Positions 9,420-27,899 of a DNA stretch of 32,000 bases are shown here, piece after piece. This DNA comes from an uncultured Alphaproteobacteria bacterium (GTDB taxonomy: Bacteria; Pseudomonadota; Alphaproteobacteria; Rhizobiales; Devosiaceae): assembly GCA_963717095.1 (NCBI GenBank), contig CAVQVF010000005.1:360404-392403 (forward strand), read 5' to 3'. The first letter of the stretch is position 1. The number at the start of each line of letters is the position of its first letter. Position numbers and translations under genes: made by a program. Under the pieces are notes generated by a model. It searched no databases, was not told the origin of the DNA, and worked only from the letters and a program-made list of their open reading frames with translations.

Positions 9420-9425
9420 ATGCGG

Positions 9426-10703: not shown

Positions 10704-10742
10704 TCATTCCTCCCTTAAGGAATTTGTTGATATTGGACTTGT

Positions 10743-11858: not shown

Positions 11859-11911
11859 GTGGACCTCCCTATTTTTTATAGATCCCTAAGCGAGACCGTG
11901 ATTTTCAGTGT

Positions 11912-12002: not shown

Positions 12003-12017
12003 GGGCTGATATGCATT

Positions 12018-12800: not shown

Positions 12801-12854
12801 CAGGGTCGAGCCGAATAATCGCCAGTGCCAAGCTGGCCCGGATTGGAGGATCCC

Positions 12855-13913
12855 ATGTCGCGCGTGATCATCGAGAACATCAAGAAAAGCTATGGCGCCG
12901 TCGAGGTGTTGCATGGGGTTTCCATTGACATAGCGGATGGAGAATTCGTCGTTCTGGTCGGTCCGTCCGGCTGCGGAAAGTCCACGCTGCTGCGCATGAT
13001 CGCGGGACTGGAAGGCATATCGGGCGGCGATGTCATCATTGGGGACCGGATCGTCAACGATCTGCCGCCCAAGGAGCGCGATATCGCCATGGTGTTCCAG
13101 AGCTACGCGCTTTATCCGCACATGACCGTGGCGCAAAATATGGGCTTTGCCCTCAAGCTGGCCCGCGCCAGCCGCGCCGAAGTGGACAAACGGATCGGCA
13201 ACGCCGCCGAAATTCTCAGCCTGACGCCGTACCTGGAGCGCTATCCCCGCGAGCTTTCGGGTGGGCAGCGCCAGCGCGTGGCGATGGGGCGGGCTATCGT
13301 GCGCGATCCGCAGGTGTTCCTGTTCGATGAGCCGCTGTCCAATCTGGATGCTAAACTGCGGGTGCAGATGCGCGCCGAAATCAAGGAACTGCACCAGCGC
13401 CTCAAGACCACCACGGTTTATGTCACCCATGACCAGATCGAGGCCATGACCATGGCGGACAAGATCGTGGTGATGAACGCTGGCATCATCGAGCAGATCG
13501 GCACGCCGCTTGAGCTGTATGACCGGCCAAAAAACCTGTTCGTGGCTGGTTTCATGGGGTCGCCGGCGATGAATTTCCTGTCCGGCACAGCCAAGGTTAA
13601 TGGTTCTGTTGGCGTCTCCACCAATGGCGTAGACCTGCCCTTGACCCAGACCGGGGCGGCAATTGATGGCCAGGCGGTAGTCTACGGCATCAGGCCGGAA
13701 CACCTGGAGCTTGCAGACTCAGGCATTCCCGTTACCGTCAGCGTGGTGGAGCCGACCGGATCGGAAACCCAGGTTTATCTCAAATTTGGCGGCACCGATT
13801 TGATGGCAGTGTTTCGCGACCGGCACGATTTCCGCCCTGGGCAGGCAATCTATGTTAAGCCGCGAATGGAAAAAGCTCATCTCTTCGACGGCGCCAGTGG
13901 CGGACGGCTTTGA
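12855..13913 (+). CDS. Sugar ABC transporter ATP-binding protein (MalK/UgpC-type)
   Basis: Start ATG 12855 (MSRVIIENIKK) with GGAGGA upstream. Walker A GPSGCGKST, signature LSGGQRQRVAMGRA, Walker B FLFDEPLSNLDA, and a MalK-like C-terminal regulatory domain. Confidence 0.9.
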   Translation: MSRVIIENIKKSYGAVEVLHGVSIDIADGEFVVLVGPSGCGKSTLLRMIAGLEGISGGDVIIGDRIVNDLPPKERDIAMVFQSYALYPHMTVAQNMGFALKLARASRAEVDKRIGNAAEILSLTPYLERYPRELSGGQRQRVAMGRAIVRDPQVFLFDEPLSNLDAKLRVQMRAEIKELHQRLKTTTVYVTHDQIEAMTMADKIVVMNAGIIEQIGTPLELYDRPKNLFVAGFMGSPAMNFLSGTAKVNGSVGVSTNGVDLPLTQTGAAIDGQAVVYGIRPEHLELADSGIPVTVSVVEPTGSETQVYLKFGGTDLMAVFRDRHDFRPGQAIYVKPRMEKAHLFDGASGGRL

Positions 13914-14237: not shown

Positions 14238-15299
14238 ATGTCCAAAGACGTTAGCTACAAACGGCCAAAACTCAGCGACGTTGCCCGCGAAGCCGGGGTT
14301 TCTCCGGCGACTGTGTCGCGTGTATTGAACCATCCGGGAATCGTTCGCCCCGATTTGCAGGCCAAGGTACGGCGGGCAATCACGGCGCTCGGTTATGCCC
14401 CCGATGCGGTGGCGCGCGCCCTCAGCCTGGGGCGCAGCAGCACGATCGGCGCGGTGATTCCAACCCTGGGCATGACCGTTTTCGCCAATGGCACCGCCGC
14501 GTTGCAGTCGCGGCTGCGCGAGCATGGCTATACCCTGCTCATCACCAATTCGGAATATGATGGCGACCGGGAGCTGGAAGAGATCAAGGTCCTGCTCGAA
14601 CGCGGCGTGGATGGTCTCGTGCTGGTCGGCGACATGGTCAGCGCCGCCGCCGTGACCCTGGCCGGGCAATACCGCGTGCCGGTCATCACCACCTATGTCA
14701 ACGAGTCGCAATTCGCCGTGCCGGCTATCGGTATCGACAACGCTGAAGCCATGAACCGCGTGCTGCAACTGCTGCTCGACCTGGGCCACCGCGAATTTGG
14801 CGTCATCACCGATGTGGCCCCCCACAATGACCGTCAGCGGGCACGGCGGCGCGGCCTGTTCGCGGCGTTCCAGACCGCCGGCATTTCACTGGCGCCGCGC
14901 CGCATTGCCGAAGTTCCCTATTCGGTGGCCAATGGGCGCTCGGCATTCCGTCGCCTGATGACCATGGAGCCCGATGTCACCGCCGTCATCTGCAGCTCCG
15001 ACGCATTCGCCATCGGTGCTCTCGCCGAGAGCCGGGTGCTCGGCCTCAACGTGCCACGCGACGTCTCGGTGACGGGGTACGATGATGTCGATATTTCCCT
15101 CCACACCGATCCACCGCTGACCACGGTCAACGTGCCGGCTGCGATGATCGGTCGGCTGGCGGCCGATCATATTGTGGCGGCGCTCAATGGCTGGACGCCG
15201 CCTGCGACCACCAAGCTACCCACCCAGATCATGATCCGGGGCTCCTCCGCGCCGCCCCGCCAATCGCCCCCTAAAGGGCTGCGCTCAACCGAGCGCTGA
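14238..15299 (+). CDS. LacI-family transcriptional regulator
   Basis: N-terminal HTH KLSDVAREAGVSPATVSRVLN, followed by a periplasmic-binding-protein-like effector domain. 353 aa. Confidence 0.9.
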   Translation: MSKDVSYKRPKLSDVAREAGVSPATVSRVLNHPGIVRPDLQAKVRRAITALGYAPDAVARALSLGRSSTIGAVIPTLGMTVFANGTAALQSRLREHGYTLLITNSEYDGDRELEEIKVLLERGVDGLVLVGDMVSAAAVTLAGQYRVPVITTYVNESQFAVPAIGIDNAEAMNRVLQLLLDLGHREFGVITDVAPHNDRQRARRRGLFAAFQTAGISLAPRRIAEVPYSVANGRSAFRRLMTMEPDVTAVICSSDAFAIGALAESRVLGLNVPRDVSVTGYDDVDISLHTDPPLTTVNVPAAMIGRLAADHIVAALNGWTPPATTKLPTQIMIRGSSAPPRQSPPKGLRSTER

Positions 15300-16458
15300 G
15301 CGCATGCAGCCGCCCCGGGAAAGCCAGCCGGGTCAAGGCTTCGGCGAAATAATAGTCGCCAAACAGCACCGCGCTATCGGTGCCGATATTATGCGGCTTG
15401 GAATAGCAACCGTGCAGCAGAATGCCGCGATGGGCCGGATCACGGGCCAGATAATGCTCACACAGCGCGCGCAAGGTCTTTTCCGCCTCCTGCCGCCAAT
15501 ATGCGGCGCGGCCGCTGTCGGGATGCAGGTCCGCCATGTTCAGATAGGCTGACGCGATGATGGCAGCGGTCGCTGAATCGCGCGGCGCATTGGGGATTGC
15601 GGGATCGTCGAAATCCCAGAACGGGATCGCGTGCTCCCCCAGCCGGGCTGCATAATAGGCGGCCAATTGCTCGGCCAGTGCCAGGTATTCGAGCTTGCCG
15701 GTCGCGTCCGCCGTAGCCGCATAGCCATAAATGGCCCAGGCTTGGCCCCGCGACCACGCCGATTCATCGCCATGGCCCTGGAACGTGAAGCCCCGCTGCC
15801 GCGTGCCGCTGGGCAGGTCATATTCCACCGCATGATAGGTCGAATTATCCGGGCGGATGAAGCTGCCCCGAGTGGTCCTGGCATGGGCTTCGCCGGCCAG
15901 CCGGGAGCTGCCGTCATCGGCATAATCGGCGGCCCAATACAACAGCGACAGGTTCGCCATGGTGTCGATGGCCGAACTGCGCCGCCCGCGCGGATCGGAG
16001 AGCGGACCCCAGGATGAAATGTACCCACCCTGGTCCGTAGTAACGAGGCGGCTGCGCAGGCGGTCCGCGGCGCAAAGCGCCACATCGGCATAATGTGTGT
16101 CACCGGTCAGCGTGAACAGCGGAACGGCGCTGCTCCAGAACAGGAAGCCGATATCGTGGGTATTGCCGTCCTTGGCGCGCGGCACCAGCAGTTGGAAGCG
16201 TTCCCTTGCCAGTTCGAGATGCCGGCTATTGCCGCTCTGCAGATGGCCGGCCAGCAGCAGCCCGATCCAGAAACCGGAAAACCAGTTGCCGTGGCTCCAT
16301 CCCGTCTCGGAATAGCCGGCGGACAGCGATGCCGGCATGAGCTGCCAAGTGCCGTCCGGCGCGGTGACATAAGGAAAGGCCGAACCGAGGACTGCTTCGT
16401 CCTCCAGGGTCTTCTGCGCGATCAGGGCGAGGGCTTCGGCCTGCCAGGGCTCGGTCAT
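15271..16458 (-). CDS. Glycoside hydrolase family 88, unsaturated glucuronyl hydrolase (cytoplasmic)
   Basis: 395 aa with no signal peptide. The block GWSHGNWFSGFWIGLLLAG resembles the UGL WTDGFWSG block. The alpha/alpha-barrel-type sequence contains DIGFLFW, AIDTMANL and RGQAWAIYG. Context with kduI and kduD. Confidence 0.87.
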   Translation of the reverse strand: MTEPWQAEALALIAQKTLEDEAVLGSAFPYVTAPDGTWQLMPASLSAGYSETGWSHGNWFSGFWIGLLLAGHLQSGNSRHLELARERFQLLVPRAKDGNTHDIGFLFWSSAVPLFTLTGDTHYADVALCAADRLRSRLVTTDQGGYISSWGPLSDPRGRRSSAIDTMANLSLLYWAADYADDGSSRLAGEAHARTTRGSFIRPDNSTYHAVEYDLPSGTRQRGFTFQGHGDESAWSRGQAWAIYGYAATADATGKLEYLALAEQLAAYYAARLGEHAIPFWDFDDPAIPNAPRDSATAAIIASAYLNMADLHPDSGRAAYWRQEAEKTLRALCEHYLARDPAHRGILLHGCYSKPHNIGTDSAVLFGDYYFAEALTRLAFPGRLHALSARLSAAL

Positions 16459-16493
16459 TGGTCGTACTCCATTGGGTTTGTGCGCGATGCCGG

Positions 16494-16525
16494 TTGACAG
16501 AGCGGACGCGATTGCCCCTTATAGT
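16494..16525 (+). promoter_or_regulatory. Candidate promoter for the 16578-25609 operon (TTGACA ... TATAGT)
   Basis: Perfect TTGACA at 16494-16499 and TATAGT at 16520-16525, but the 20-bp spacer is longer than optimal. The palindrome starts 2 nt after the -10. Confidence 0.3.
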
Positions 16526-16526
16526 T

Positions 16527-16542
16527 CTGAAAGCGCTTTCAG
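16527..16542. promoter_or_regulatory. Perfect 16-bp palindrome CTGAAAGCGCTTTCAG, a LacI-family operator candidate
   Basis: Fully self-complementary with a central CG. It matches the generic LacI/GalR operator pattern TGnAAnCGnTTnCA. It lies in the 119-bp spacer between the divergent GH88 start (16458) and the CoA-transferase start (16578). Confidence 0.55.
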
Positions 16543-16577
16543 GCAACAATTGGAAAGCGAACGAAAGGGTTTGAAAC

Positions 16578-17774
16578 TTGGTTCTGGACGGTTTGAAGGT
16601 CATCAATTTCTGCCACTACCTTCAGGGCCCGGCTGCGATGCAGTACCTGGCCGATATGGGCGCGGACGTCATCAAGATCGAGCCGCGCGGCGGTGCCTTC
16701 GAGCGGGAATGGGCCGGGGCAGGGGTCGCCAGGGTCGGGGGTGTCAGCGCGCTCTATCTCTGCGGCAACCGCAATGTGCGCAGCCTCTCCATGGACCTCA
16801 AGCATCCCGAAGCCAAGGAAGTGGTTTACCGCCTGCTGGACCAAAGCCACGTGCTGGCGGAGAATTTCCGCCCCGGCGCGCTCGATCGTCTCGGCTTCGG
16901 CTATGACGCGGTCCGCCGGCGCAAGCCCGATATCATTTATGCCTCCGCATCCGGCTTTGGCTCCACCGGCCCGTTCGCTCGCCGTCCGGGGCAGGATCTG
17001 CTGGTCCAGGCCATGTCGGGCCTGACCACGGTCAGCGGCGACGGCCGCACGCCGGTGCCGGTCGGCCTGGCCGCTGCCGATCAGCATGGCGCGGCGCTGA
17101 TGGCGCTGGGCATAGCCGGTGCCTATGCGCGCTGGCAGTCCAGCGGCGAAGGCACGCGCGTCGAGGCCACGTTATTCGGTGCCGCGATCGACCTGCAGAA
17201 CGAGTCCATCGTCACCTATCATGCCGCCAACCAAGGCCGCGAAGCCCTGATGCGCGATGCCCGGCTGGCCACCTGGTATCACGAGGCGCCCTATGGCGTT
17301 TACCCGATCAAGGACGGTTTCCTCGCTCTGTCCATGACGACACTGGAAGCGCTTTCAGAAGCGCTTGGCGATCCAGGGCTCAAGGCCCTGGTGGGCTGCG
17401 ATCCCTATGTCGAGCGCGACCGGGTTGCGGCTGCGACCGCCGCGGCGCTTGCCGGGCGCGGCTATGCCGATCTCGCCGCGGCCCTGGAAGTCGGCAAAAT
17501 CTGGTTTGCCCGCGTCGAGGATTATGACGACCTGATGGTCAATCCCCAGGCAATCCACAATGGCGCCTTCCAGTCCGTGCCGGTCAACGGTGCGACGGCC
17601 ACCCTGGTCAGCCACCCCGTCAGCTATGACGGCGTCGTTCCGCCGGTGCGATCCATGTCGCTATCCGCCGGCTCGGACACGCTCTCGATCCTTGAAGACG
17701 CCGGTTTCGATCCCTCGGAGCTGAACGATCTTCTGCGCAACCAGGTTATCTTCACCGCGGAGCAGGCAGCGTGA
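16578..17774 (+). CDS. Family III CoA-transferase (CaiB/BaiF/Frc family)
   Basis: 398 aa. N-terminal LDGLKVINFCHYLQGPAAMQYLADMGADVIKIEP and ENFRPGALDRLGFGYD are family hallmarks. The TTG start at 16578 is the first start codon after an in-frame TGA at 16572, with AAAGGG 8 nt upstream. Confidence 0.87.
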   Translation: MVLDGLKVINFCHYLQGPAAMQYLADMGADVIKIEPRGGAFEREWAGAGVARVGGVSALYLCGNRNVRSLSMDLKHPEAKEVVYRLLDQSHVLAENFRPGALDRLGFGYDAVRRRKPDIIYASASGFGSTGPFARRPGQDLLVQAMSGLTTVSGDGRTPVPVGLAAADQHGAALMALGIAGAYARWQSSGEGTRVEATLFGAAIDLQNESIVTYHAANQGREALMRDARLATWYHEAPYGVYPIKDGFLALSMTTLEALSEALGDPGLKALVGCDPYVERDRVAAATAAALAGRGYADLAAALEVGKIWFARVEDYDDLMVNPQAIHNGAFQSVPVNGATATLVSHPVSYDGVVPPVRSMSLSAGSDTLSILEDAGFDPSELNDLLRNQVIFTAEQAA

Positions 17775-18214
17775 GTGACACCGAATTTTTCGTGGCGATC
17801 GGCGACGAAGTCAGCTTTTCCAAAACCGTTGGCGAGTCCGACGTTTACATGTTTGCCGGCATCACCGGCGATCTGTCGTCCAACCACGTCAACGAGCAGG
17901 CCATGAGCCGCTCCAAATTCGGCCGCCGCGTTGCCCATGGCGCCTTGCTGGTCGGCTTCATGTCCACCGGTTCGACGCGCCTGATCGAGACCTTCGGTCA
18001 ATCGGCGCTGGGCACCGCGACCGCCGTGTCGCTGGGCTATGACCGGGTCCGTTTCGTGGCGCCGGTGTTTTTCGGCGACACGATCACAGTTCGCTACCGA
18101 GTTAACCGGCTGGAGCCGGAACGGCAGCGCAGTTATGGCGAGATAACCGTCGTCAACCAGAATGGAACGGTCGTGGCCGTTGCAGAGAACATCCTCAAGT
18201 GGGTGGCCGATTAG
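17771..18214 (+). CDS. MaoC-like (R)-specific enoyl-CoA hydratase/dehydratase, single hot-dog fold
   Basis: 147 aa. Variant hydratase-2 motif FAGITGDLSSNH. The GTG start overlaps the upstream stop (GTGA). Confidence 0.83.
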   Translation: MSDTEFFVAIGDEVSFSKTVGESDVYMFAGITGDLSSNHVNEQAMSRSKFGRRVAHGALLVGFMSTGSTRLIETFGQSALGTATAVSLGYDRVRFVAPVFFGDTITVRYRVNRLEPERQRSYGEITVVNQNGTVVAVAENILKWVAD

Positions 18215-18246
18215 TTCGGCAAGTTCGTAAAAAGGGAGACTACCAA

Positions 18247-19275
18247 ATGAAAAATCGTGCTGTATTGCCTACCCTGAATGTCGGTTTGGGCATTCGTGCC
18301 GTGGCTCTGGCCAGCCTGCTCGGCGCAACCGCTCTGGCGACGGCCCCGTCCGCCATTGCCCAGGAACAGAAGTCGATGGCCGTCGTGGTCAAGGTGGCGG
18401 GCGATCCGTGGTGGAGCCGGCTGGAAGAGGGCCTGAACGAATATGCCGCGGCCCATCCGGGCATCAAGGTGTTCATGCAGGGCATCTCGCACTCCGACGC
18501 GGCCCTGCAGGCCCAGCTGATCGAAGATCTCGTGGCCCAGGATATCGACGCCATCGGCATCATCCCGATTTCCCCGCAAACGCTTGAGCCGGTCATCGCC
18601 AAGGCCCGGGCTCAGGGTATCGTCGTCGTCACCCATGAGGGTGAAACCCAGCCCACCAAGGACTACGATATCGAAGCCTTCGACAATGCCGAATATGGCG
18701 TTCACCTGATGGATCAGCTCGCCGAGCGCATGGGCGAGGAAGGCGAATACGCCGTCTATGTTGGCAAGCTGACCAATGTGTCGCAGAATATCTGGGTCGA
18801 TGCCGCCATCGCGCACCAGAAAGAAGCCTATCCCAAGATGACCCTGGTCGGCGACCGGATCGAAACCGGCGAAGACGCCGCGACCGCCTATCGCAAGACG
18901 CTCGAACTGCTGGTGGCCTATCCCAATATCAAGGGTTTCCAGGGCTCCTCGTCCAATGACCCGATCGGTATCGGCCAGGCCATTGAGGAAGCGGGCCTCG
19001 AAGAGGCCACCACCGTCGTCAGCACCAGCCTCGTGTCGCTGACCCAGGATCTGCTGCAAAGCGGTGCTGTCGATATGATCAGCTTCTGGGATCCCAAGCT
19101 CGCGGGTGAAGCGATGATGGAAGCCGCCGTTCGTGCCATGGACAAGAAGCCGATCGTGACGGGCGACGATCTGGGCATCGAAGGCTACAACAAGGTCACC
19201 GTGAAGGGCGATGTCGTCGTCGGCGCCGCCTGGGTCGACGTCACCGCCGAGAATATGGATCAGTACGACTTCTAA
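18247..19275 (+). CDS. Sugar ABC transporter periplasmic binding protein, LsrB/RhaS-like (type I PBP)
   Basis: Start ATG 18247 (MKNRAVL) with GGGAG upstream, followed by a signal peptide ending AIAQEQ. The C-terminal ENMDQYDF resembles the LsrB C-terminus. Followed by RbsA- and RbsC-type components. Confidence 0.87.
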   Translation: MKNRAVLPTLNVGLGIRAVALASLLGATALATAPSAIAQEQKSMAVVVKVAGDPWWSRLEEGLNEYAAAHPGIKVFMQGISHSDAALQAQLIEDLVAQDIDAIGIIPISPQTLEPVIAKARAQGIVVVTHEGETQPTKDYDIEAFDNAEYGVHLMDQLAERMGEEGEYAVYVGKLTNVSQNIWVDAAIAHQKEAYPKMTLVGDRIETGEDAATAYRKTLELLVAYPNIKGFQGSSSNDPIGIGQAIEEAGLEEATTVVSTSLVSLTQDLLQSGAVDMISFWDPKLAGEAMMEAAVRAMDKKPIVTGDDLGIEGYNKVTVKGDVVVGAAWVDVTAENMDQYDF

Positions 19276-19297
19276 GTCGGCGATTTTACGCAACTAC

Positions 19298-19321
19298 GAT
19301 GCCGGGTCATGGCCCGGCATC
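19298..19321 (+). other. GC-rich intercistronic stem-loop directly after the binding-protein gene
   Basis: GATGCCGGG (19298-19306) and CCCGGCATC (19313-19321) are perfect reverse complements with a 6-nt loop. No T-run follows. Confidence 0.4.
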
Positions 19322-19341
19322 ATTTGAATCGAGGGGGTTTC

Positions 19342-20880
19342 ATGGCTGACAGTGCGGACAATCAAGGGGCGAACTCCGGCGCTTCGCCACTCTTGCGCGT
19401 CGTCGATATCGCCAAGTCCTATGGCGGCGTCAGGGCATTGTCCGGTGTCAGCCTGGACGTGGCGGCGGGCGAGGTCATTTCGCTGGCCGGCGAAAACGGC
19501 TCGGGTAAATCGACCCTTATCCGCGCCATTGCCGGGGTCGAACGGCCCGATTCCGGCAAGATTTTCATCGATGGCGTCGATTGGTCGGAACAGCCGCCAT
19601 CCGCTCGTATCCATGCCGGCGTGCAGATCATCTATCAGGATTTCGCCCCTTTCCCCAATCTGACGGCGGCCGAAAATATCTGGTTGCCACGCCAGATCAG
19701 CCAGGGGCGCCACATCGTCAGCCGCGCCAAAGGCCGCGCCATGGCCCGCGCCGTGCTGGATGATATGAAGGTCAGCATCGATCTCGATCGGGACCTGAGC
19801 GAATTGCCGGTCTCCCATAAGCAACTGGTGGCCATCGCGCGGGCATTGGCCCATGACGCGCGCCTGCTGATCATGGACGAGCCGACCACCGCGCTGACCC
19901 ACCGCGAGGTCGACCAATTGTTCACCCTCATTCGCCGCCTGGCCGGGGAGGGGATGGGGTTCATCTTCGTCAGCCACAAATTGCAGGAAGTCGCCGATAT
20001 CGCCGAGCGCGCCGTGGTGCTGCGCAGCGGCTCGGTAGTACTCTCCGCGCCGCTCAAGACCTTGAGCGAAGCCGACATCCAGCGCGCCATGACCGGCCGG
20101 GAAATTTCATCCGATCGCTACGAGCGCCCGGTCCGCCCGGTGCCGGCGCAACCGCGTCTGTCTCTCAGCGGATTGTCGGACGGCACCCAGTTCCACGATG
20201 TCAGCTTCGATTTGGCCCCTGGCGAAATCCTCGGCCTGGCCGGGCTGATGGGCGCTGGCCGCACCGCTTTGGCGAAAGCGATTTTCGGCATCGAGCCTGC
20301 CACCAAAGGGCGGATCAGCATCGATGGGCGCGATATTGCGGTGCGCAGCGTGGCCGATGGCCTGCGCGGTGGCATCGCCTATGTTCCCGAGGACCGGCTG
20401 AGCGAGGGCCTGTTTCTCAATTTCAGCATCCGCGACAATATCGTGGTGCGCGCCGCCGCGCAGTTGACCGACCGGTTTGGCTGGCTCACCGGCCAGCGCA
20501 AGTCCAAGGAGGCCATGCAGTGGATCGACCGGCTGTCGATCAAGGCATCCTCGGATCGCGCCCCGGTCACCAGCCTTTCGGGCGGTAACCAGCAACGCGT
20601 GGTGCTTGCGAAGTGGATGGCCAGCCACCCCGCCGTGCTCATCCTCAATCGCCCTTCGGTCGGCGTCGATGTGGGCTCGAAAGCCGGCATTCACGATGTC
20701 ATCGTCGATCTGGCCAATCAGGGCGTCGGCATCATCGTCATCTCCGATGATCTGCCCGAGTTGATGCAGCTTTGTGACCGCCTGCTGGTCGTGCGCAATG
20801 GCCGGATCGCGGCGGAACGGATGGTGGCGCAAAGTTCGGCTGCTGAAATCGTGGCCATCATCAATGAGAGCAAGTCATGA
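19342..20880 (+). CDS. Sugar ABC transporter ATP-binding protein, duplicated NBD (RbsA/LsrA-type)
   Basis: Start ATG 19342 with GAGGGGG upstream. 512 aa with two NBDs (GENGSGKST and GLMGAGRT Walker A motifs; LSGGNQQRVVLAKW signature). Confidence 0.9.
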   Translation: MADSADNQGANSGASPLLRVVDIAKSYGGVRALSGVSLDVAAGEVISLAGENGSGKSTLIRAIAGVERPDSGKIFIDGVDWSEQPPSARIHAGVQIIYQDFAPFPNLTAAENIWLPRQISQGRHIVSRAKGRAMARAVLDDMKVSIDLDRDLSELPVSHKQLVAIARALAHDARLLIMDEPTTALTHREVDQLFTLIRRLAGEGMGFIFVSHKLQEVADIAERAVVLRSGSVVLSAPLKTLSEADIQRAMTGREISSDRYERPVRPVPAQPRLSLSGLSDGTQFHDVSFDLAPGEILGLAGLMGAGRTALAKAIFGIEPATKGRISIDGRDIAVRSVADGLRGGIAYVPEDRLSEGLFLNFSIRDNIVVRAAAQLTDRFGWLTGQRKSKEAMQWIDRLSIKASSDRAPVTSLSGGNQQRVVLAKWMASHPAVLILNRPSVGVDVGSKAGIHDVIVDLANQGVGIIVISDDLPELMQLCDRLLVVRNGRIAAERMVAQSSAAEIVAIINESKS

Positions 20881-21875
20881 GCATTTCACGATTTCTATTG
20901 CGGCAGGAGACCATGCTGCTGCTGGTCCTGATCCTGCTGGTGGCTGTCGTCGGGCTCATCAATCCGGGCTTCCTGACCTTCTTCAACCTGTTCTCCATGC
21001 TCAAGAGCAGCACCGTGGTCGGCCTGTTCGCCATCGGCTTCTTCATCGTTCTGGTGATCGGCGGGCTCGACGTATCCTTCGCCGCCATTGCCGTCGTGGC
21101 CATGTACGGCACCGTGGTTCTGGCCAATGCCGTGTTCCCGGACCTGTCGATTTGGGCGCTATTCGCCATAGCCGGGCTGATCGGGGCCGGGCTCGGCGCC
21201 ATCAATGGCGTGCTGGTCACCGTGCTCAAGGCGCCATCGCTGATCATCACTTTGGGCACCACCAGCCTGTTCCGTGGCTTCCTGCTCTATTTCGTCGGCA
21301 CCGATACCATCCGCAAAGTGCCTTCCGGCATGGTGGAGTTCTCGCGCATCAATGTCCTGTCCATGACCGCCGATAACGGCGCCAGGGTAGGGCTGCATGT
21401 CTCCGTGCTGATCTTTCTGGTCATTGCCGCACTGGTGTTTTTCGTGATGCGCTACACCACGATTGGCCGAAGTCTCTATGCCATTGGCGGCAATCGTGTC
21501 GCAGCGGCGCGCATGGGCATCAATGTGCAACGCATCGAAATCCTCGCCTATACGGCGGCCGGGCTGCTCGCCGGTATTGGCGGGCTGACCGCCGCCGGCG
21601 TGATCCGTCTCGCCAATCCGCAGACCCTGGTCGGCGGCGAGCTGGACGTCATCGCCGCAGTCGTCATCGGTGGCGCTGCAATCACTGGCGGACGCGGCAG
21701 CGTGATCGGCGTCCTGCTGGGCACGCTGCTGATCGTCACCACCAATAACAGCCTGATCGTGCTGGGCGTATCGACGGTCTGGCAGAAGGTTGCCATCGGA
21801 GCCCTGCTGCTGCTGGCCATCGGCCTGCCGCTGCTTGGCCGGCTCCTCCAGGGGCAGAAGGGAACGCAGCCATGA
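20877..21875 (+). CDS. Sugar ABC transporter permease (RbsC/LsrC-type)
   Basis: 332-aa polytopic membrane protein. ATGA start/stop overlap at both ends. Confidence 0.9.
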   Translation: MSISRFLLRQETMLLLVLILLVAVVGLINPGFLTFFNLFSMLKSSTVVGLFAIGFFIVLVIGGLDVSFAAIAVVAMYGTVVLANAVFPDLSIWALFAIAGLIGAGLGAINGVLVTVLKAPSLIITLGTTSLFRGFLLYFVGTDTIRKVPSGMVEFSRINVLSMTADNGARVGLHVSVLIFLVIAALVFFVMRYTTIGRSLYAIGGNRVAAARMGINVQRIEILAYTAAGLLAGIGGLTAAGVIRLANPQTLVGGELDVIAAVVIGGAAITGGRGSVIGVLLGTLLIVTTNNSLIVLGVSTVWQKVAIGALLLLAIGLPLLGRLLQGQKGTQP

Positions 21876-22930
21876 GCACCGCCAGCCAGGCCAGGGAAAA
21901 GCAGCCCATGAGATTGCCCGAATATCTGAGCCCGCATGTCATCGTGCTGTTCGTCGTCGCTGTCCTCGTCGCCGCCGGGCTGGGATTGGCGCGGCCCGAT
22001 ATTTTCCTCAGCGCCCAAAACCTTCAGTCCATGCTGCTGCAGACCAGCGTCATCGGCCTGCTATCCCTGGCCGTGGCCCTGACCTTGCTGACCGGCGGCA
22101 TCGATCTTTCGGTCAATGCCACCGCCAATCTTGGCTCGATCATCGCCGCTAATTTGATGGCCGGCATGGTCGCCAGCCAGTTCGGCCTGCCTCCTGAATT
22201 GGTGGCGGTTGTCGGCCTGGCAATAGGATTGGGCGTCGGCGTGCTGTGCGGGCTGTTCAATGGCGTGCTGATCGCCGTCCTCGGCTATTCACCCATTCTG
22301 GCAACGCTGGGCACCATGACGCTGTTCGTCGGCATCGGCACCGTGATTACCGGCGGCAGCACGCTGTTCGGCATCGAGGCCTTTGCGGCAGTCGGGCGCG
22401 GAACCTTGCTCGGCCTGCCCGTGCCGGCGCTGATCTTCGTGCTGGCGGCGATTGCCCTGGCCTTCATGCTGCATGGGCGCCGGTTCGGCTTCAACGTCTA
22501 TCTCTACGGCGCCAATCCCGTTGCCGCGCGCTATTCCGGCATCAACACACGGCGCCTGCTCTTGGCGGTCTATGCCCTGAGCGGGGCGCTGGCCGGTCTG
22601 GCCGGCATGATCAACCTGGGCGTGACCAATTCCGCCAATGTCGATTTCGGTTCCTCCTATGTGCTGATGGCCATTCTGGTTGCCGTTCTGGGCGGCATTT
22701 CGCCCCTGGGCGGCGCGGGCAAGATCGTCGGCGTGATCTTCTCCGTCGTCATCCTGCAGCTATTGTCCACCGGCCTCAATCTGGTGTTCCAATCGAGCGG
22801 CAGCAATTTCCTCAAGGACTTTGCCTGGGGCGCGACCCTCATCCTGGTCCTGGCGGTTGGCGCCGTGCAGCCCAAATATTTCCGAACGCTGCTGAGCCTC
22901 GGGCGAACAACCAAACAACGGGGCCTGTGA
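21872..22930 (+). CDS. Sugar ABC transporter permease (RbsC/LsrD-type)
   Basis: 352-aa polytopic membrane protein. ATGA overlap with the upstream permease. An alternative start at Met13 is possible. Confidence 0.88.
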   Translation: MSTASQAREKQPMRLPEYLSPHVIVLFVVAVLVAAGLGLARPDIFLSAQNLQSMLLQTSVIGLLSLAVALTLLTGGIDLSVNATANLGSIIAANLMAGMVASQFGLPPELVAVVGLAIGLGVGVLCGLFNGVLIAVLGYSPILATLGTMTLFVGIGTVITGGSTLFGIEAFAAVGRGTLLGLPVPALIFVLAAIALAFMLHGRRFGFNVYLYGANPVAARYSGINTRRLLLAVYALSGALAGLAGMINLGVTNSANVDFGSSYVLMAILVAVLGGISPLGGAGKIVGVIFSVVILQLLSTGLNLVFQSSGSNFLKDFAWGATLILVLAVGAVQPKYFRTLLSLGRTTKQRGL

Positions 22931-22932
22931 TC

Positions 22933-23127
22933 ATGCAGACCAAGGACGACGCCGTACTCCTGGCCTGCGACGCCATGCTGCGCGAAGTTGGCAATATGCC
23001 ATTGACGCCCGAGCGCCTGGACGATGCCTCCGGCGTCATCCGCAGCATCGTCGCGGCGATCCGCGCCATGGATGAAGTCGATGTCGACGAAGTCGAACCC
23101 GCCTTCGTCTTCAGGGCGCAGCCATGA
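22933..23127 (+). CDS. GatC/AtzG-like small protein (64 aa), probable obligate partner of the downstream amidase
   Basis: Not listed as its own ORF; it forms the last 64 codons of the spurious 22246-23127 ORF. Translation: MQTKDDAVLLACDAMLREVGNMPLTPERLDDASGVIRSIVAAIRAMDEVDVDEVEPAFVFRAQP. It shows the GatC pattern (helical segment, then acidic D-x-D/E-x-V-E-P). The ATG lies 2 nt after the permease stop, and its stop overlaps the amidase ATG (ATGA). Confidence 0.65.
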   Translation: MQTKDDAVLLACDAMLREVGNMPLTPERLDDASGVIRSIVAAIRAMDEVDVDEVEPAFVFRAQP

Positions 23128-24530
23128 CCCCTGCACCCCTGAGCATTCGCCAAGCCGGCGAGCAGCTGCGTGCCCGCACGCTGAAAGCCACCCAGCTGGT
23201 GGGCCAGGCTATCGCCGCCGCAGACCGCTCGGACAAGGCGCTCAACGTCTTTGCCGCGCGGGCCGATAGCCAGCGCCTGCTGGACCAAGCCGGACAGATC
23301 GACCGCCGCCTCGATGCCGGTGACGCCGTCGGCCCCCTGGCCGGCATTCCGCTCGCCATCAAGGATCTTTTCGACACTTACGATCTGCCCACCACGGCCA
23401 GCTCCAAGGTTCTGGCCGGCCGCCAGACCGAGGGCGATGCCGTCGCCGTGGCGCGCCTGCGGGCTGCCGGTGGCGTCGTGGTCGGCAAGTCGCAGACCCA
23501 TGAATTTGCCTATGGCCCCACCACCAACAACGACTATGCCGGCCCCTCGCACAATCCGTGGAACCCCGAACACGTCCCGGGCGGCTCCAGCGGCGGTTCC
23601 GCCATCGCGGTCGCCACTGGCATGTGCATGGGCGCGACCGGCAGCGATACCGGCGGCTCCATCCGCACGCCCAGCGCGCTCTGCGGCATTTCCGGCCTCA
23701 AACCCACCTATGGCCTTGTCAGCAAGCGCGGCGTGCTGTCGCTCGCCTGGTCGCTCGATCACGCCGGCCCCATGGCGCGCAGCGTCGATGACCTCGCCTT
23801 CCTGCTCGAAGCCATGGCCGGTTTCGATCCCGAAGACCCCGGCTCGGCCCAGGTGACGCTGCCACGCTATAGCGAAGTCGCCGCCCAGCCCCCCGAAGCC
23901 CTGCGGATCGGCGTTCCCGCCCACTATTTCCTCGATACCATCGACCCCGAAGTGCGCGCTGCCTTCGAGACTTCGCTCGATACCCTTCGCGCCCTCGGCC
24001 ACAGCGTCGAAACCGTCGTGCTGCCGCATCTCAAATACGCGCTAGGCGCGGAACTGGCGATCCTGGCCTCGGAAGCCTCCGCCTATCACCGCGACCGGAT
24101 GCGGATGCAAGCCAACGACTTCTCATCCAACGTGCGGCGCGAACTCGATGCCGGCATGACCGTGCTGGCCACCGACTACCTGCTCGGCCAGCGCGTCCGC
24201 CGCCTGATTTGCCGGGATTTCGCCGAGGTCTTCACCAAGCTCGATGTGCTGGCAACGCCCACCATCCCCATCGTCGCGCCCCGCATCGGCGCTGCCACGG
24301 TATCGATCGAGGGCGTCGACTATCCGGCGCTGAACGCGATCTGGCGCAATGTGTTTCCCACCAATCTCACCGGCTCACCGACCCTGTGCCTGCCCAACGG
24401 TTTCTCGCGCTCGAACCTGCCGATCAGCCTGCAATTGATCGGCCGCAATTTCGACGAAGCCACCCTGCTGCGCCTCGGTGTCCAGTTGCAGAACCACACC
24501 GACTGGCACCGCCAGACCCCACCCGTCTAG
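23124..24530 (+). CDS. Amidase-signature family amidohydrolase (GatA/AtzE-like)
   Basis: 468 aa. Ser-cisSer-Lys triad contexts PLAIKDLF, GGSSGGSAIAVA and GSDTGGSIRTPS. Confidence 0.9.
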   Translation: MTPAPLSIRQAGEQLRARTLKATQLVGQAIAAADRSDKALNVFAARADSQRLLDQAGQIDRRLDAGDAVGPLAGIPLAIKDLFDTYDLPTTASSKVLAGRQTEGDAVAVARLRAAGGVVVGKSQTHEFAYGPTTNNDYAGPSHNPWNPEHVPGGSSGGSAIAVATGMCMGATGSDTGGSIRTPSALCGISGLKPTYGLVSKRGVLSLAWSLDHAGPMARSVDDLAFLLEAMAGFDPEDPGSAQVTLPRYSEVAAQPPEALRIGVPAHYFLDTIDPEVRAAFETSLDTLRALGHSVETVVLPHLKYALGAELAILASEASAYHRDRMRMQANDFSSNVRRELDAGMTVLATDYLLGQRVRRLICRDFAEVFTKLDVLATPTIPIVAPRIGAATVSIEGVDYPALNAIWRNVFPTNLTGSPTLCLPNGFSRSNLPISLQLIGRNFDEATLLRLGVQLQNHTDWHRQTPPV

Positions 24531-24556
24531 CCCTTTTGAATTCGGAGTTGCTGCCT

Positions 24557-25609
24557 ATGCCGCGCTATGACGCCGGGGAACTGATTGCCTTCGCCGCCGC
24601 CCTGCTGGTTCGCCACGGCATGCAAGCAAACCGCGCGCAGCCTGTAGCCGAGATCCTTGTCGAAGCCGATATGATGGGCCACGACACCCACGGCCTGCAA
24701 TTGCTGCCCGCCTATCTGGCCGATTTGACATCCGGCCGCATGGCCGCCGATGGCGAACCGACCGTGGTCAGCGACCGCGGCGCGGTGGCAGTCTGGGACG
24801 GCGGCTGGCTGAGCGGGGTATGGCTCACCCTGCAGGGGCTGGAAACGGCTGCGGCCAAGGCAAAGGCCTTCGGCATCGGCGCCGTCGCCATCCGGCGCAG
24901 CCATCACATCGCCTGCCTGCAAGCCTATCTGCCCCGCATCACCGAGCAGGGGCTGATGGCCATGATTACCTGTTCGGACCCGTCGGGGGCCTCCGTCGCC
25001 CCCTTCGGCGGGCTCGATGCGGTCTTCACGCCCGATCCAATCGCTCTGGGCATTCCCACCGAGGGCGAACCGATCCTGATCGACATGTCCTCCTCCATCA
25101 CCACCAATGGCATGACCGGACGGCTCGACCGGAACGGCGAGCGGGCAGGGGGCCTGTGGATGCAGGATAGCGAGGGCAGGGCCACCGACGATCCCAAGGT
25201 GCTCAGCCAGGTTCCCCCCGGCACGCTGCTGCCCACCGGCGGCCACGACCACGGCCACAAAGGCTATGGCATGGCGCTGATGGTTGAAGCTCTCTCCCAG
25301 GGCCTGAGCGGCTATAGCCGCGATACCGCGGAAAAACGGTGGGGCGCCGCCACCTTCATCCAGGTCTTCGATCCCGAACTTTTCGCCGGCGCCGGCGCCT
25401 ATCAGGAAACAACTTCGGCCCTGGTCCGCCTCTGCCTGGGCTCGCGCCCCCATCCCGATATGGGCGCCGTACGCATGCCTGGCCAAAAGGCCCTCTCCCG
25501 CCGCCGCGACGCATTGGAAAACGGCGTGCCGCTCATCGATGGCGTGGTCAAAGCCCTCACCAACATTCCCACCCGCGACGGCATCGACCTCCCCACGGCA
25601 CGGCAATAG
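24557..25609 (+). CDS. Ldh_2 family oxidoreductase (malate/L-lactate dehydrogenase family 2; AllD/DpkA/YiaK-like)
   Basis: 350 aa from ATG 24557 (MPRYDAGELIAF). The block EADMMGHDTHGLQLLPAYL is typical of the family. The longer listed ORF (24209) overlaps the amidase and is rejected. Confidence 0.87.
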   Translation: MPRYDAGELIAFAAALLVRHGMQANRAQPVAEILVEADMMGHDTHGLQLLPAYLADLTSGRMAADGEPTVVSDRGAVAVWDGGWLSGVWLTLQGLETAAAKAKAFGIGAVAIRRSHHIACLQAYLPRITEQGLMAMITCSDPSGASVAPFGGLDAVFTPDPIALGIPTEGEPILIDMSSSITTNGMTGRLDRNGERAGGLWMQDSEGRATDDPKVLSQVPPGTLLPTGGHDHGHKGYGMALMVEALSQGLSGYSRDTAEKRWGAATFIQVFDPELFAGAGAYQETTSALVRLCLGSRPHPDMGAVRMPGQKALSRRRDALENGVPLIDGVVKALTNIPTRDGIDLPTARQ

Positions 25610-25652
25610 GCCCGAAACGGGAACCGACTATCACCGATGACCACCACCGACT

Positions 25653-25809
25653 GAGAGCCCCAATCTGATCCCCTCCCCCTTGAGGGGAGGGTTAGGGTGG
25701 GGGTTCTGACCCCTCAGCAGGGTTCATCCAGAGGTATAGGCCTGTTTGAAAGCCCAGAACCCCCACCCTAATCCTCCCCTCAAGGGGGAGGGGACCGATT
25801 GGGGCTCCC
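25653..25809. repeat. REP/MITE-like nested palindromic element, copy 1 (arms about 56 bp, loop about 46 bp)
   Basis: Left arm 25653-25708 is GAGAGCCCCAATCTGATCCCCTCCCCCTTGAGGGGAGGGTTAGGGTGGGGGTTCTG. The right arm 25755-25809 is its near-perfect reverse complement. Each arm contains its own hairpin, CCCCTCCCC-TTGA-GGGGAGGG. The element lies 44 nt after the Ldh_2 stop. Confidence 0.8.
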
Positions 25810-25901
25810 AAAAACCACGGCAAACCAGAATCTCGATTCAGCCTGCCCCTGCTGTACAACCCGAAAATCCAGGTGTGAGGGCCGCCCCCTAGGCTAAACC
25901 G

Positions 25902-25993: not shown

Positions 25994-26077
25994 ATGCTCG
26001 ATCTCGTCTTTTTACTGTTGGGAGCCGCGCTGTTCCTTGGGCTGGCGCTGTATGCGCGCAGCCTGAACCGGCTGTGA
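25994..26077 (+). CDS. Unlisted 27-aa hydrophobic micro-ORF upstream of kdpF (single predicted TM helix)
   Basis: ATG 25994 preceded by GGAGG with a 5-nt spacer (an in-frame ATG at 25982 is also possible). Translation: MLDLVFLLLGAALFLGLALYARSLNRL. The stop TGA at 26075-26077 overlaps the GAGG SD of kdpF, 8 nt before its ATG. Confidence 0.4.
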   Translation: MLDLVFLLLGAALFLGLALYARSLNRL

Positions 26078-26084
26078 GGCCCAG

Positions 26085-26171
26085 ATGATCATTCCCATCA
26101 TCGCATTCGTGGTGGCGCTCGCGCTCGCCGTCTATCTGCTCGTCACCCTGCTCGCGCCCGAGCGGTTCTGA
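26085..26171 (+). CDS. kdpF: K+-transporting ATPase subunit F
   Basis: 28-aa ORF MIIPIIAFVVALALAVYLLVTLLAPERF. It has the canonical single TM helix plus a C-terminal PE(R/K)F, and sits immediately upstream of kdpA. It is too short for the ORF track. Confidence 0.75.
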   Translation: MIIPIIAFVVALALAVYLLVTLLAPERF

Positions 26172-26189
26172 GCTATTGGAGTTTTTCTC

Positions 26190-27899
26190 ATGTCCTTCAC
26201 CGGCTGGGTACAGATCGCGCTTGTGCTGATCGTCACCCTGCTCACGGTCAAGCCTCTCGGCCTCTATATGGCCAAGGTTTTCTCCGGCGAGCGTAATTTC
26301 CTCTCTCCCGTCCTCGGCCCGGTCGAGCGCGGGTTTTATGCCATCGCCGGGGTCGATCCGAAAAAGGGCCAGGGCTGGCTCGCCTATGTCTTTGGCGTGC
26401 TGCTGTTCTCGCTCGTCGGCTTCGTGCTGCTCTATGCCATTCTGCGCCTGCAAAATGTCTTGCCGTTCAATCCGTTGAACCTGCCGGCCGTGGCGCCGGA
26501 TCTGGCCTTCAACACCGCCATGAGCTTCGTCACCAATACCAATTGGCAGGCTTATAGCGGCGAAAGCACCATGAGCAATTTCAGCCAGATGGTGGGCCTG
26601 ACGGTACAGAACTTCGTCTCCGGCGCCACCGGCGTGGCTGTCGCCATCGCCCTGACGCGCGCCTTTATCGGCTCCGGCGTCAAGGAACTGGGCAATTTCT
26701 GGGTCGATCTGACCCGCGCCACGCTTTACGTGCTGCTGCCACTGGCTATTGTCGTGGCCCTGGTCTTCGTCGCCATGGGCTTGCCGCAAACGCTCACTGC
26801 CGCAACGGCTGCGACGACGCTCGAAGGCGCCAACCAGACCATCGCGCTGGGCCCCGTTGCCAGCCAGGAAGCCATCAAGCAGCTTGGTACCAATGGTGGT
26901 GGCTTCTTCAACGTCAACGCCGCCCATCCGTTCGAAAATCCCAACGCGTTCTCGAACTACCTCAACATTATCTCGATGCTGCTGGTCCCCATGGCGCTGG
27001 CCTTCACTTTCGGCCAACTGGTCGGCAATCGCCGCCAGGGTTGGGCGTTCATCTCCGTCATCCTCATCCTGCTGGTCGTGGGCACCGGTGCCATCTACTG
27101 GGCCGAAACCTATGGCAATCCGCTGGTCAGCGCCTTGGGCGTCGATCCGTCCATGGGCAATATGGAAGGCAAGGAGATTCGCTTCGGCCAGCCCATGACC
27201 GCGCTCTATGCAGCCGTCACCACCGGCATCTCCGATGGCGGCGTCAATGGCATGCTGAGCTCGTTCACCCCCCTGGGTGGTCTCGTGCCGATGTTCTTCA
27301 TCCAGCTCGGCGAAATCCTGCCCGGTGGCACTGGCTCGGGCCTCTATGCGCTGGTGGTCTTCGCCATCCTCGCCGTCTTCATCGCCGGCCTGATGGTGGG
27401 CCGCACGCCCGAATTCCTCGGGAAGAAGATCGAGGCCCGCGAGATGAAATATGCCGTTCTGGCAGTGATCATCCTGCCACTGACCATTCTTGGCTTTACC
27501 TCGATCTCGGTGGTGCTGCCCTTTGGCGTCTCGCAAATCCTGAGCGCCGGGCCGCATGGCCTCTCGGAAATCCTCTACGCCTATACCTCGGCAGCCGGCA
27601 ATAACGGCTCCGCCTTCGCCGGTCTCTCGGCCAATACCCCTTGGTACAATACCACCCTGGGCATTGCCATGCTGCTCGGCCGCTTCGCCTACCTCGTGCC
27701 GGTCCTGGCCATTGCCGGCTCGCTGGCCGCCAAGACCAAGTCGGCGCCTTCCGCCGGCACTTTCCCCACCGATCGGCCGCTCTTCGTCGGCTTGATGATC
27801 GGCGTCATCCTGATCCTGGGCGGGCTGCAATTCTTCCCGGCCCTAGCCCTCGGGCCCATCGTCGAGCACTTCGTCATGCTCGCCGGCCAGACCTTCTGA
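26190..27899 (+). CDS. kdpA: K+-transporting ATPase subunit A (potassium-binding channel-like subunit)
   Basis: 569 aa. N-terminus [34 protein letters not shown] and the [10 protein letters not shown] and TNGGGFF selectivity-filter-like blocks are typical of KdpA. Confidence 0.95.

Follow-up and report, generated by a model that had tools for sequence, protein, structure and literature searches.

A 32,000-nt stretch of genomic DNA from an uncultured bacterium of the family Devosiaceae (contig CAVQVF010000005.1; hereafter the window, in which all positions are given; G+C about 62%) contains an operon of nine genes at 16578-25609. Judged from its sequence, this is a real and conserved operon of uncharacterized enzymes, probably controlled by a LacI-type repressor. 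It is a mosaic of three modules and not an indivisible nine-gene set: an importer/amidase core (Module 1); a triad of a family III coenzyme A (CoA)-transferase, a MaoC-type dehydratase and a protein similar to glycoside hydrolase family 88 (GH88); and a clade-specific oxidoreductase of the Ldh_2 family. In the window operon, the triad has been fused to the importer/amidase module, and Ldh_2 has been added. The protein families are known, and the trio of CoA-transferase, dehydratase and GH88-like hydratase is previously undescribed. In the literature searched, the combination is undescribed as well, chiefly the tie of this GH88 subfamily to CoA enzymes and the presence of an AtzEG-type amidase in a sugar-type operon. 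The reading favored here, which is held tentatively, is that of one LacI-repressed catabolic locus for the import and deamidation of a sugar-like carboxamide, followed by CoA-dependent dehydration, vinyl-ether hydration by the GH88-like enzyme, and an Ldh_2 step. There is a substantial chance of new chemistry at this locus. A preliminary description of this DNA had stated that no described pathway joins these modules, and a full-text literature search also found nothing relevant; neither did searches for GH88 with CoA enzymes, uronyl-CoA compounds, and uronamide amidases.

The nine plus-strand open reading frames (ORFs) have high third-position G+C. They encode, in order, the family III CoA-transferase (16578-17774, TTG start; PF02515), the MaoC-type (R)-specific enoyl-CoA hydratase/dehydratase with a single hot-dog domain (17771-18214, 147 aa; PF01575), a CUT2 sugar-type periplasmic binding protein with a signal peptide (18247-19275; PF13407), an ABC ATPase with two nucleotide-binding domains (19309-20880; ABC_tran), ABC permeases 1 and 2 (20877-21875 and 21872-22930; both BPD_transp_2), a 64-aa truncated-GatC-like small subunit of the AtzG type (22933-23127), an amidase-signature enzyme similar to GatA and AtzE (23124-24530; PF01425), and an Ldh_2-family NAD(P)-dependent 2-hydroxyacid/2-oxoacid oxidoreductase (24557-25609; PF02615). 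Four junctions are 4-nt overlaps (GTGA at 17771; ATGA at 20877, 21872, and 23124), and the remaining gaps are 32, 33, 2, and 26 nt. The true start of the ATPase is more likely the ATG at 19342, which is preceded by a GAGGGGG Shine-Dalgarno sequence, than 19309, and with this start the gap of 33 nt becomes 66 nt. That the nine genes are co-transcribed is suggested by their coupling, by the one operator/promoter region that precedes them, and by the absence of signals inside the operon. Promoter and terminator scans of the locus gave results at the chance level and are uninformative either way, and no RNA family in Rfam matched the window.

Upstream of the operon, a LacI-family transcriptional regulator gene on the plus strand (14238-15299; Pfam LacI, Peripla_BP_1 and Peripla_BP_3) is convergent with a minus-strand gene for the GH88-like protein, a homolog of unsaturated glucuronyl hydrolase (UGL) (15271-16458). 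The latter gene is divergent from the operon across a region of 119 nt (16459-16577). Both genes belong to the same unit as the nine-gene operon. The preliminary description had recognized the nine genes and their 4-nt overlaps, and the ORFs and junctions were reproduced exactly; the LacI gene and the divergent GH88-like gene were missed. It had delimited the feature as 16459-25609; 16459 is the first intergenic base after the divergent gene and not a gene start. All of its family assignments, including the GatC/GatA-like pair, hold by Pfam and NCBIfam, and for the small protein by hhalign. None of the nine products attains the curated score of a characterized NCBIfam equivalog.

The divergent region contains a perfect palindrome of the LacI-family type, TGAAAGCGCTTTCA, at 16528-16541 (operator O1). 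Direct reading also revealed TTGACA at 16494-16499 and CTTATA/TATAGT at 16518-16525, which may constitute a promoter; a scan with the sigma-70 consensus did not flag these elements. The regulator has the helix-turn-helix and sugar-binding domains of LacI repressors, with the palindrome lying in the promoter region. The operator motif TGAAAnCGnTTTCA is found just 5′ of the CoA-transferase gene in eight homologous loci (L002, L005, L007, L091, L093, L095, L097, and L098), and the control loci (2.0 Mb) contain 14 matches as background. Orthologs of the regulator with 54-90% identity adjoin the GH88-like gene or the CoA-transferase gene in L001, L002, L005, L007, L091, and L093-L098. It is probable that the LacI regulator at 14238-15299 is the repressor of the locus. 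Because the genes are coupled and a LacI-type palindrome is conserved in the divergent promoter of at least eight homologous loci, the locus is considered one regulated unit. A candidate auxiliary operator with one mismatch, TGGAAGCGCTTTCA (O2), is present at 17344-17357 within the CoA-transferase gene, about 816 bp downstream of O1. The locus of Devosia sp. 2618 (L001) likewise has two copies, at 4137 and 4940. By analogy with the auxiliary operators of lac, the pair of O1 and O2 suggests repression by DNA looping.

The GH88-like protein of the window showed no Pfam match at E ≤ 0.01, PF07470 included, and several of its homologs with 62-75% identity have a precomputed match to PF07470. Its homology to the UGL of Bacillus is clear (phmmer against 1vd5, E = 1.8e-53). 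Counted on the alignment to 1vd5, the UGL residues D88, D149, H193, Q211, R221, W225, Y338, W42, and W134 are all kept. In UGL, D88 and D149 are the catalytic Asp residues, and H193, Q211, R221, W225, and Y338 are the uronate-binding residues. The protein lacks a signal peptide. It belongs to a subfamily of more than 120 clusters at >60% identity, which is common in Bradyrhizobium and in soil metagenomes, is automatically annotated as "unsaturated chondroitin disaccharide hydrolase", and shows just 34-41% identity to canonical GH88. Compared with the canonical UGL systems of Bacillus sp. GL1 and Streptococcus, with KduI/KduD downstream, the catalytic and uronate-binding residues are retained, but the window subfamily is linked to CoA-thioester enzymes and a LacI regulator, not to polysaccharide lyases.

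This linkage was quantified by a metagenome scan followed by a presence matrix. Homologs of the CoA-transferase and MaoC were found within 10 kb in 14 of the 15 contigs of at least 9 kb that carry this GH88 subfamily, and in none of the 35 such contigs that carry canonical GH88 (≤41% identity) (Fisher's exact p = 1.6e-11, from partly non-independent samples). The single exception, L094, ends 650 bp beyond the LacI gene. Because of this co-occurrence, the CoA-transferase/MaoC pair is assigned to the GH88-like gene, and the pair is evolutionarily tied to that gene and not primarily to the amidase. The triad without the amidase recurs in Bradyrhizobium and in many soil metagenome contigs. In one contig (L092, 8361-11194), the CoA-transferase and MaoC are fused into a single protein of 547 aa, and its stop codon overlaps the start of the GH88-like gene.

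The partners of the triad vary among loci. In Bradyrhizobium canariense, the neighbors of the GH88-like gene are LacI, CoA_transf_3, a CUT1 importer, MaoC, a second GH88-like paralog, and DHDPS-family and FAH-family genes. The recurrent extra partners are acyl-CoA dehydrogenase (six loci), crotonase (four loci), and the DHDPS family (four loci); NagB-like proteins and the FAH family are partners as well, and L175 has a hot-dog thioesterase. Transporters that recur in triad loci are of the TRAP (DctPQM), CUT1 or EamA type. No polysaccharide lyase is among the recurrent families of the triad loci. Many triad loci contain two GH88-like paralogs (L091, 18581-19747; L100; L109; L175, 8408-9574; L177, 12499-13689), and in several of these there is a second CoA-transferase, or crotonases and a thioesterase of the FlK/4HBT type replace MaoC. 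The paralogs and the partner swaps suggest a family of related CoA-dependent pathways with differing substrates.

Both CoA enzymes are members of their Pfam families. The CoA-transferase scores 260 bits against CoA_transf_3 (PF02515; cut-off 23) over profile positions 1-351 of 366. All NCBIfam equivalog scores are far under their cut-offs, and the best matches in the Protein Data Bank (PDB) reach just E ~ 1e-39. In family III CoA-transferases, a catalytic Asp forms an aspartyl-CoA anhydride intermediate. The Asp in AAADQHGAAL, at the place expected for this residue, is the candidate. The MaoC protein scores 63.7 bits against PF01575 (cut-off 27), and in its sequence GDLSSNH the Asp and His are five residues apart, which is presumably the MaoC hydratase motif.

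Two known systems resemble this pair. In the itaconate/mesaconate system Ict/Ich/Ccl, a family III CoA-transferase is likewise followed by a MaoC-type hydratase, whereas the partner of the window pair is the GH88-like protein. The itaconate route was rejected as an identity for the locus: RipB/Ich reaches 19 of the 340 bits required, the mesaconate transferase model 131 of 700, and there is no citramalyl-CoA lyase in the locus. The cai operon of Escherichia coli also pairs a family III CoA-transferase (CaiB) with a (de)hydratase (CaiD), and CaiB is the sole NCBIfam model that aligns over the full window transferase (residues 2-389). In some triad loci, the additional acyl-CoA dehydrogenase and crotonase parallel CaiA and CaiD. 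In CaiB/CaiD, a beta-hydroxy acid is dehydrated at the level of the CoA ester and CoA is cycled from product to substrate (PMC2131755). However, the CaiB score is 86.5 bits against 413, the window hydratase is a MaoC hot-dog protein and not a crotonase, the context is of sugar type and not of betaine type, and the CaiC ligase and the CaiT antiporter are absent. With the score, the crotonase partner and the betaine transporter all lacking, membership in the Cai system was rejected, and Cai is regarded as a mechanistic analog only.

The chemistry proposed for the triad starts from what its enzyme families do. MaoC, crotonases and acyl-CoA dehydrogenases all produce a C=C bond conjugated to the thioester, and GH88 enzymes hydrate a C=C bond that is conjugated to a carboxyl group, with a ring oxygen on the alpha carbon. 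Because a uronate is an alpha-alkoxy, beta-hydroxy acid, a sequence of thioesterification, elimination and hydration is chemically consistent. In the mechanism proposed for the whole locus, the CUT2 importer would take up a small sugar-acid amide, and the two-subunit amidase would convert it to the free sugar acid and ammonia or an amine. The CoA-transferase would thioesterify the carboxylate beside the ring oxygen (C6 of a uronate-type acid), elimination of the beta-hydroxyl (C4-OH) by MaoC would leave an alpha,beta-unsaturated (4,5-ene) acyl-CoA, and the CoA would be passed on to the next substrate molecule in a cycle like that of CaiB/CaiD. The cytoplasmic GH88-like enzyme would hydrate the vinyl ether, with ring opening or aglycone release, to give a 4-deoxy-5-keto acid. 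Finally, Ldh_2 would reduce or oxidize an alpha-keto/alpha-hydroxy position, which would allow entry to sugar-acid catabolism. TRAP (DctPQM) transporters are present in some triad loci, which points to a carboxylate as the substrate of the triad. The wider proposal, that the triad is an unrecognized CoA-dependent route for intracellular cleavage of the ring-oxygen/glycosidic bond of saturated uronate-type acids, fed here by the importer and the AtzEG-type amidase, is possible but doubtful. Such a triad would be the functional equivalent of a polysaccharide lyase plus UGL, and in some loci the acyl-CoA dehydrogenase would make the double bond.

The retention of all catalytic and uronate-binding residues of UGL also fits the reverse order of steps. 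The GH88-like protein would then take the first step, with unsaturated glycuronides that polysaccharide lyases produce extracellularly as its substrates, the CoA-transferase and MaoC would process the resulting acid or aglycone, and the substrate of the amidase would be unrelated or loosely related. The presence of KduI, SDR and MR_MLE enzymes and a CUT1 importer a few kb upstream in the window, as well as of CUT1 oligosaccharide importers in several triad loci, points in the same direction. However, the known GH88 product is an alpha-keto acid without a beta-hydroxyl, which would, on established chemistry, be a poor substrate for the CoA-transferase and MaoC. CoA enzymes are found in none of 57 canonical GH88 loci, no lyase family recurs in the triad loci, and in other genomes the KduI/CUT1 region does not accompany the triad. 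The reverse order is thus considered rather unlikely.

The importer consists of a Peripla_BP_4 binding protein (PF13407, 197 bits), a fused double ATPase and two BPD_transp_2 permeases. The nearest structure to the binding protein is 5bra, labeled ribose binding protein (E = 6e-74); a literature search on this PDB entry returned nothing relevant. Its relatives with 42-46% identity are plasmid-borne and lie in deoC/rbsK/rbsD operons. The ligand is probably of monosaccharide size, because the nearest relatives are pentose/deoxyribose binders. The equivalog scores of the binding protein are far from their cut-offs (LsrB 94/384, RhaS 118/342, RbsB 24/337 bits). The import of autoinducer 2 by an Lsr system was rejected on the LsrB score together with those of LsrA (397/586), LsrC (127/388), and LsrD (110/500); moreover, lsrK, lsrF, lsrG and lsrR genes were not found in the locus. 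The PGAP label "autoinducer 2" on the relatives with 42-46% identity is also unsupported by the scores. The four-component architecture is shared with the Rbs, deoxyribose-type, Lsr and Rha importers of CUT2, but the locus in the window has no kinase, mutarotase or aldolase genes, and an amidase pair follows instead.

The amidase scores 398 bits against PF01425 (cut-off 27). Its residues K80, S155, and S179 align with GatA motifs as the Lys/cis-Ser/Ser triad of amidase signature enzymes and are invariant in 16 orthologs. Among NCBIfam models, the AtzE family is the best (363 bits against the NF006631 cut-off of 461; 354 bits against the TIGR02715 cut-off of 426), and among structures GatA 4wj3 (E = 2e-78) and AtzE 6c62 (E = 1e-77) are about equally similar. 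The Asp of the GatA motif MYLxD, which presumably binds the glutamine amino group, is replaced, and five residues are deleted in the region EVKRRI...YDAYY.

The 64-aa small protein has a weak Pfam match to GatC (E = 0.0024), and five of seven members of its family weakly match the N-terminal half of GatC. Its profile matches a true 95-aa GatC with an hhalign probability of 89% (E = 2e-6), and 60-70-aa ORFs located 5′ of other stand-alone amidases with 98% (E = 4e-13). Against the PDB, searches with the single sequence and with the profile gave a best E of 0.12, to an unrelated reductase, and no match to AtzG, so that the relationship to GatC rests on Pfam and hhalign. The small ORF, with 40-84% identity, is directly 5′ of the amidase gene in every orthologous locus (seven loci). 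Thus, a GatC-derived partner directly precedes the amidase gene and is coupled to it, and the pair has an arrangement of the AtzG/AtzE type.

In Pseudomonas sp. ADP, AtzG is likewise a small (~65 aa), non-catalytic GatC-derived protein whose gene is coupled 5′ of that of the GatA-like amidase AtzE. AtzE and AtzG form an obligate complex that evolved from GatCA of the transamidosome and acts as a 1-carboxybiuret amidohydrolase, and AtzE is insoluble without the non-catalytic AtzG (PMC6219798). The pair in the window differs in having no AtzH, AtzD or AtzF and in lying within a LacI-controlled operon with a sugar-type ABC importer, whereas AtzEG belongs to a nitrogen-compound cluster. AtzE proper was rejected because the amidase is under both AtzE-family cut-offs and no AtzH (DUF3225) domain is present in the window genes scanned. 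GatCAB was rejected because the TIGR00132 score is 319 bits against 481, no GatB is in the operon, the small protein corresponds to the N-terminal half of GatC alone, and the MYLxD Asp is replaced. A similar concept, an amide-binding protein co-transcribed with an unmasking amidase, is known from the MeAmi_SBP and FmdA_AmdA operons of Mesorhizobium (bioRxiv 10.1101/2024.02.22.581678), but the families there (SBP_bac_5 and FmdA_AmdA) are unrelated and the ligands are amino-acid amides.

Neighborhoods were compared by inspection and with a tblastn presence matrix. Orthologs of the amidase form a group with at least 58% identity, beyond which identity drops to ≤48%. They include those of Devosia sp. 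2618 (84%), Aureimonas fodinaquatilis (72%), a plasmid of Aminobacter (58%), and about 45 metagenome clusters. Every amidase with at least 58% identity is preceded by the small ORF, and also by the full CUT2 importer except for the Aminobacter plasmid copy, which is truncated by an insertion sequence (IS). Amidases with ≤47% identity are not preceded by this set of small ORF and CUT2 importer. Conversely, the amidase is always present in the loci that have this importer. In these loci, the amidase would unmask the carboxylate of an imported neutral amide, and the substrate is likely to be a small, neutral, sugar-like carboxamide.

Scanned with the amidase profile, 185,579 species-representative genomes yielded one true ortholog, in Aureimonas; all other matches have ≤47% identity and no importer. 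The neighborhoods of the amidases with 41-47% identity are heterogeneous and give no hint of a substrate. In two of them (L015, 11185-14691; L025, 12827-16006), where the amidase has 41-45% identity and a small GatC-like ORF in front of it, the next gene encodes a protein of ~1,060-1,170 aa, which could be a carboxylase-type partner as in urea amidolyase systems.

In the gene-neighborhood comparison proposed in the preliminary description, the genes of the window recur in unchanged order in Aureimonas fodinaquatilis (each protein 61-81% identical) and in several metagenome contigs, which goes beyond chance, and the modules are separable elsewhere. LacI, the divergent GH88-like gene, CoA-transferase and MaoC are in the window order in Aureimonas, L005, L007, and L097/L098. 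L009 has the importer and amidase only. Plasmid pMDW2 of Aminobacter sp. MDW-2 (NZ_CP060199.1; L179/L180; 1-4000 and 150360-154923), which is conjugative, carries a version of the system scrambled by IS21. One block contains a TRAP permease fragment, acyl-CoA dehydrogenase, CoA-transferase and MaoC; the other contains a sugar ABC ATPase and a single permease together with the small ORF and the amidase. The two blocks are a few kb apart across the record origin, with copies of IS21 between them. Aminobacter sp. MDW-2 is a methomyl-degrading strain.

Several observations weigh against a single pathway through all of the modules. In Devosia sp. 2618, the GH88-like and MaoC genes are gone, and the importer, amidase and Ldh_2 are kept at 80-90% identity. 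A decayed CoA-transferase remnant of 260 aa with 42% identity, in which the presumed catalytic Asp is replaced, is at 4185-4967 of L001. This appears to be a recent loss of the triad with retention of the importer, amidase and Ldh_2, and since Devosia sp. 2618 keeps the latter without the triad, Module 1 and Ldh_2 could function on their own. L099 has the triad with a different CUT2 importer and without the amidase. Ldh_2 is variably present and is absent from most orthologous loci. The literature search yielded no uronyl-CoA intermediate, and the nearest relatives of the binding protein, which are pentose/deoxyribose binders, do not speak directly for an amide or a uronate. On the chemical side, a free monosaccharide uronate would not strictly need the GH88 step, MaoC could work in the direction of hydration, and the amide could be sited elsewhere than at the carboxyl that is activated with CoA.

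The differing distributions of the modules, with the importer and amidase alone in L009, the triad lost in Devosia sp. 2618, and most triad loci devoid of the amidase, suit another explanation. Module 1, either alone or together with Ldh_2, would be a self-sufficient unit for scavenging nitrogen or carbon from an amide, inserted behind a pre-existing unit of LacI, GH88-like, CoA-transferase and MaoC genes and sharing with them a transcript and not a pathway. The amide-specific ABC importers with an amidase in Mesorhizobium (bioRxiv 10.1101/2024.02.22.581678) provide a precedent. This explanation is given a low probability, in view of three observations. The fusion order is kept across genera at just 60-80% identity (window, Aureimonas, L005, L007, and L097/L098). 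In L009, a perfect copy of the operator motif TGAAAnCGnTTTCA precedes the binding-protein gene, so the importer keeps the LacI-type operator though the triad is not nearby. In pMDW2, the CoA-transferase, MaoC and acyl-CoA dehydrogenase genes remain a few kb from the amidase module despite the scrambling by IS21.

The oxidoreductase is a clear member of Ldh_2 (PF02615, 285 bits), and no characterized subfamily fits it. Its identification as AllD, DlgD/YiaK, ComC or YbiC was rejected, with all curated scores missed: the YbiC-type model gives 173 bits against 336, sulfolactate dehydrogenase (ComC) 138 against 500, AllD 97-108 against 356-496, and DlgD 98 against 316. Of the orthologous loci, those of Devosia sp. 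2618 and Aureimonas alone share Ldh_2 with the window. Its relatives with 48-52% identity belong to acid-sugar clusters, in the company of TTT transporters, DHDPS-family enzymes, altronate dehydratase, and a four-carbon acid-sugar kinase.

These results bear on the two routes suggested in the preliminary description: the degradation of an opine or Amadori glutamine conjugate with C-N oxidation by Ldh_2 and a CoA step, or a ureide/oxalurate route. The Ldh_2 family includes imine reductases and ureidoglycolate dehydrogenases, the amidase resembles GatA, which deamidates glutamine, and its best NCBIfam family, AtzE, acts on a ureido compound. However, the replaced MYLxD Asp, the 5-aa deletion beside EVKRRI, the lack of Ldh_2 in most orthologous loci, and a binding protein nearest to pentose/deoxyribose binders weigh against a glutamine conjugate. 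With respect to a ureide route, the neighborhood is devoid of allantoin, ureide, urea and AtzH genes, and the regulator is of the LacI type and the importer of the sugar type. The AllD, DlgD and ComC scores (97-138 bits against cut-offs of 316-500) speak against both, and neither accounts for the tie of the CoA-transferase and MaoC to the GH88-like enzyme. Both routes are unsupported and are regarded as very improbable.

A variant of the favored CoA-dependent scheme concerns the substrate alone. With the chemical logic unchanged, it could be a cyclic-ether carboxamide or carboxylate other than a common sugar acid, with 2,5-anhydro-aldonates, pentofuranuronamides, and natural products of the nucleoside-5′-carboxamide type as examples. 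The similarity of the binding protein to ribose/deoxyribose-type binders agrees with this, and the rarity of the orthologous amidase group (1 of 185,579 species-representative genomes) fits a specialized substrate. The GH88-like protein, however, keeps the residues that bind hexuronate in UGL, and the partners of the triad (DHDPS and FAH families, NagB-like proteins) are suggestive of ordinary metabolism of sugar acids or amino sugars. The chance of such a substrate appears slim.

Uronic-acid glycosides are known to be cleaved by hydrolases, by lyases followed by GH88/GH105 enzymes, and by oxidative elimination. If the proposed CoA-dependent route is true, CoA-thioester chemistry would join these modes in bacteria, a function would be assigned to a large unannotated subfamily of GH88, and amidases of the AtzG/AtzE type would extend from xenobiotic/nitrogen-compound clusters into carbohydrate catabolism. 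The locus would also offer a testable handle on amidated sugar acids, such as glucuronamide and the amidated uronic acids of bacterial polysaccharides. In the literature search, several papers describing strains included glucuronamide among the growth substrates tested, and genes for the catabolism of amidated sugar acids were not described. If the modules are unrelated, the locus would be an ordinary mosaic operon of uncharacterized enzymes.

The region upstream of the LacI gene, 5703-13913, resembles a uronate/oligosaccharide utilization cluster. It contains an SDR (5703-6596), KduI (6624-7466, minus strand), a CUT1 ABC importer (7545-10703, minus strand), an MR_MLE-family dehydratase (10743-11858, minus strand), a GntR/FCD regulator (12018-12800), and a MalK-type ATPase (12825-13913). 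This region (5.7-13.9 kb) was considered as a member of the system and rejected, as it is not conserved beside the triad or the amidase module elsewhere.

On the other side of the operon, a 40-nt inverted repeat lies at 25669-25794, 60 nt 3′ of the Ldh_2 stop codon; its arms are 98% complementary and separated by a spacer of 46 nt. The repeat looks like a repetitive extragenic palindrome; it could serve as a terminator or stabilize the mRNA, and the transcript may end there. A G/C-rich palindrome, CCCCTCCCCCTTGAGGGGAGGG, is nested in each arm, and the repeat is flanked by a weaker outer pair (25652-25810). Downstream of the repeat are the unrelated kdpFABC/kdpD genes, from ~26190. Two very short hydrophobic ORFs, MLDLVFLLLGAALFLGLALYARSLNRL and MIIPIIAFVVALALAVYLLVTLLAPERF, are present at 26000-26190, directly 5′ of kdpA, and the second one (MIIPIIAFVVALALAVYLLVTLLAPERF) looks like KdpF.

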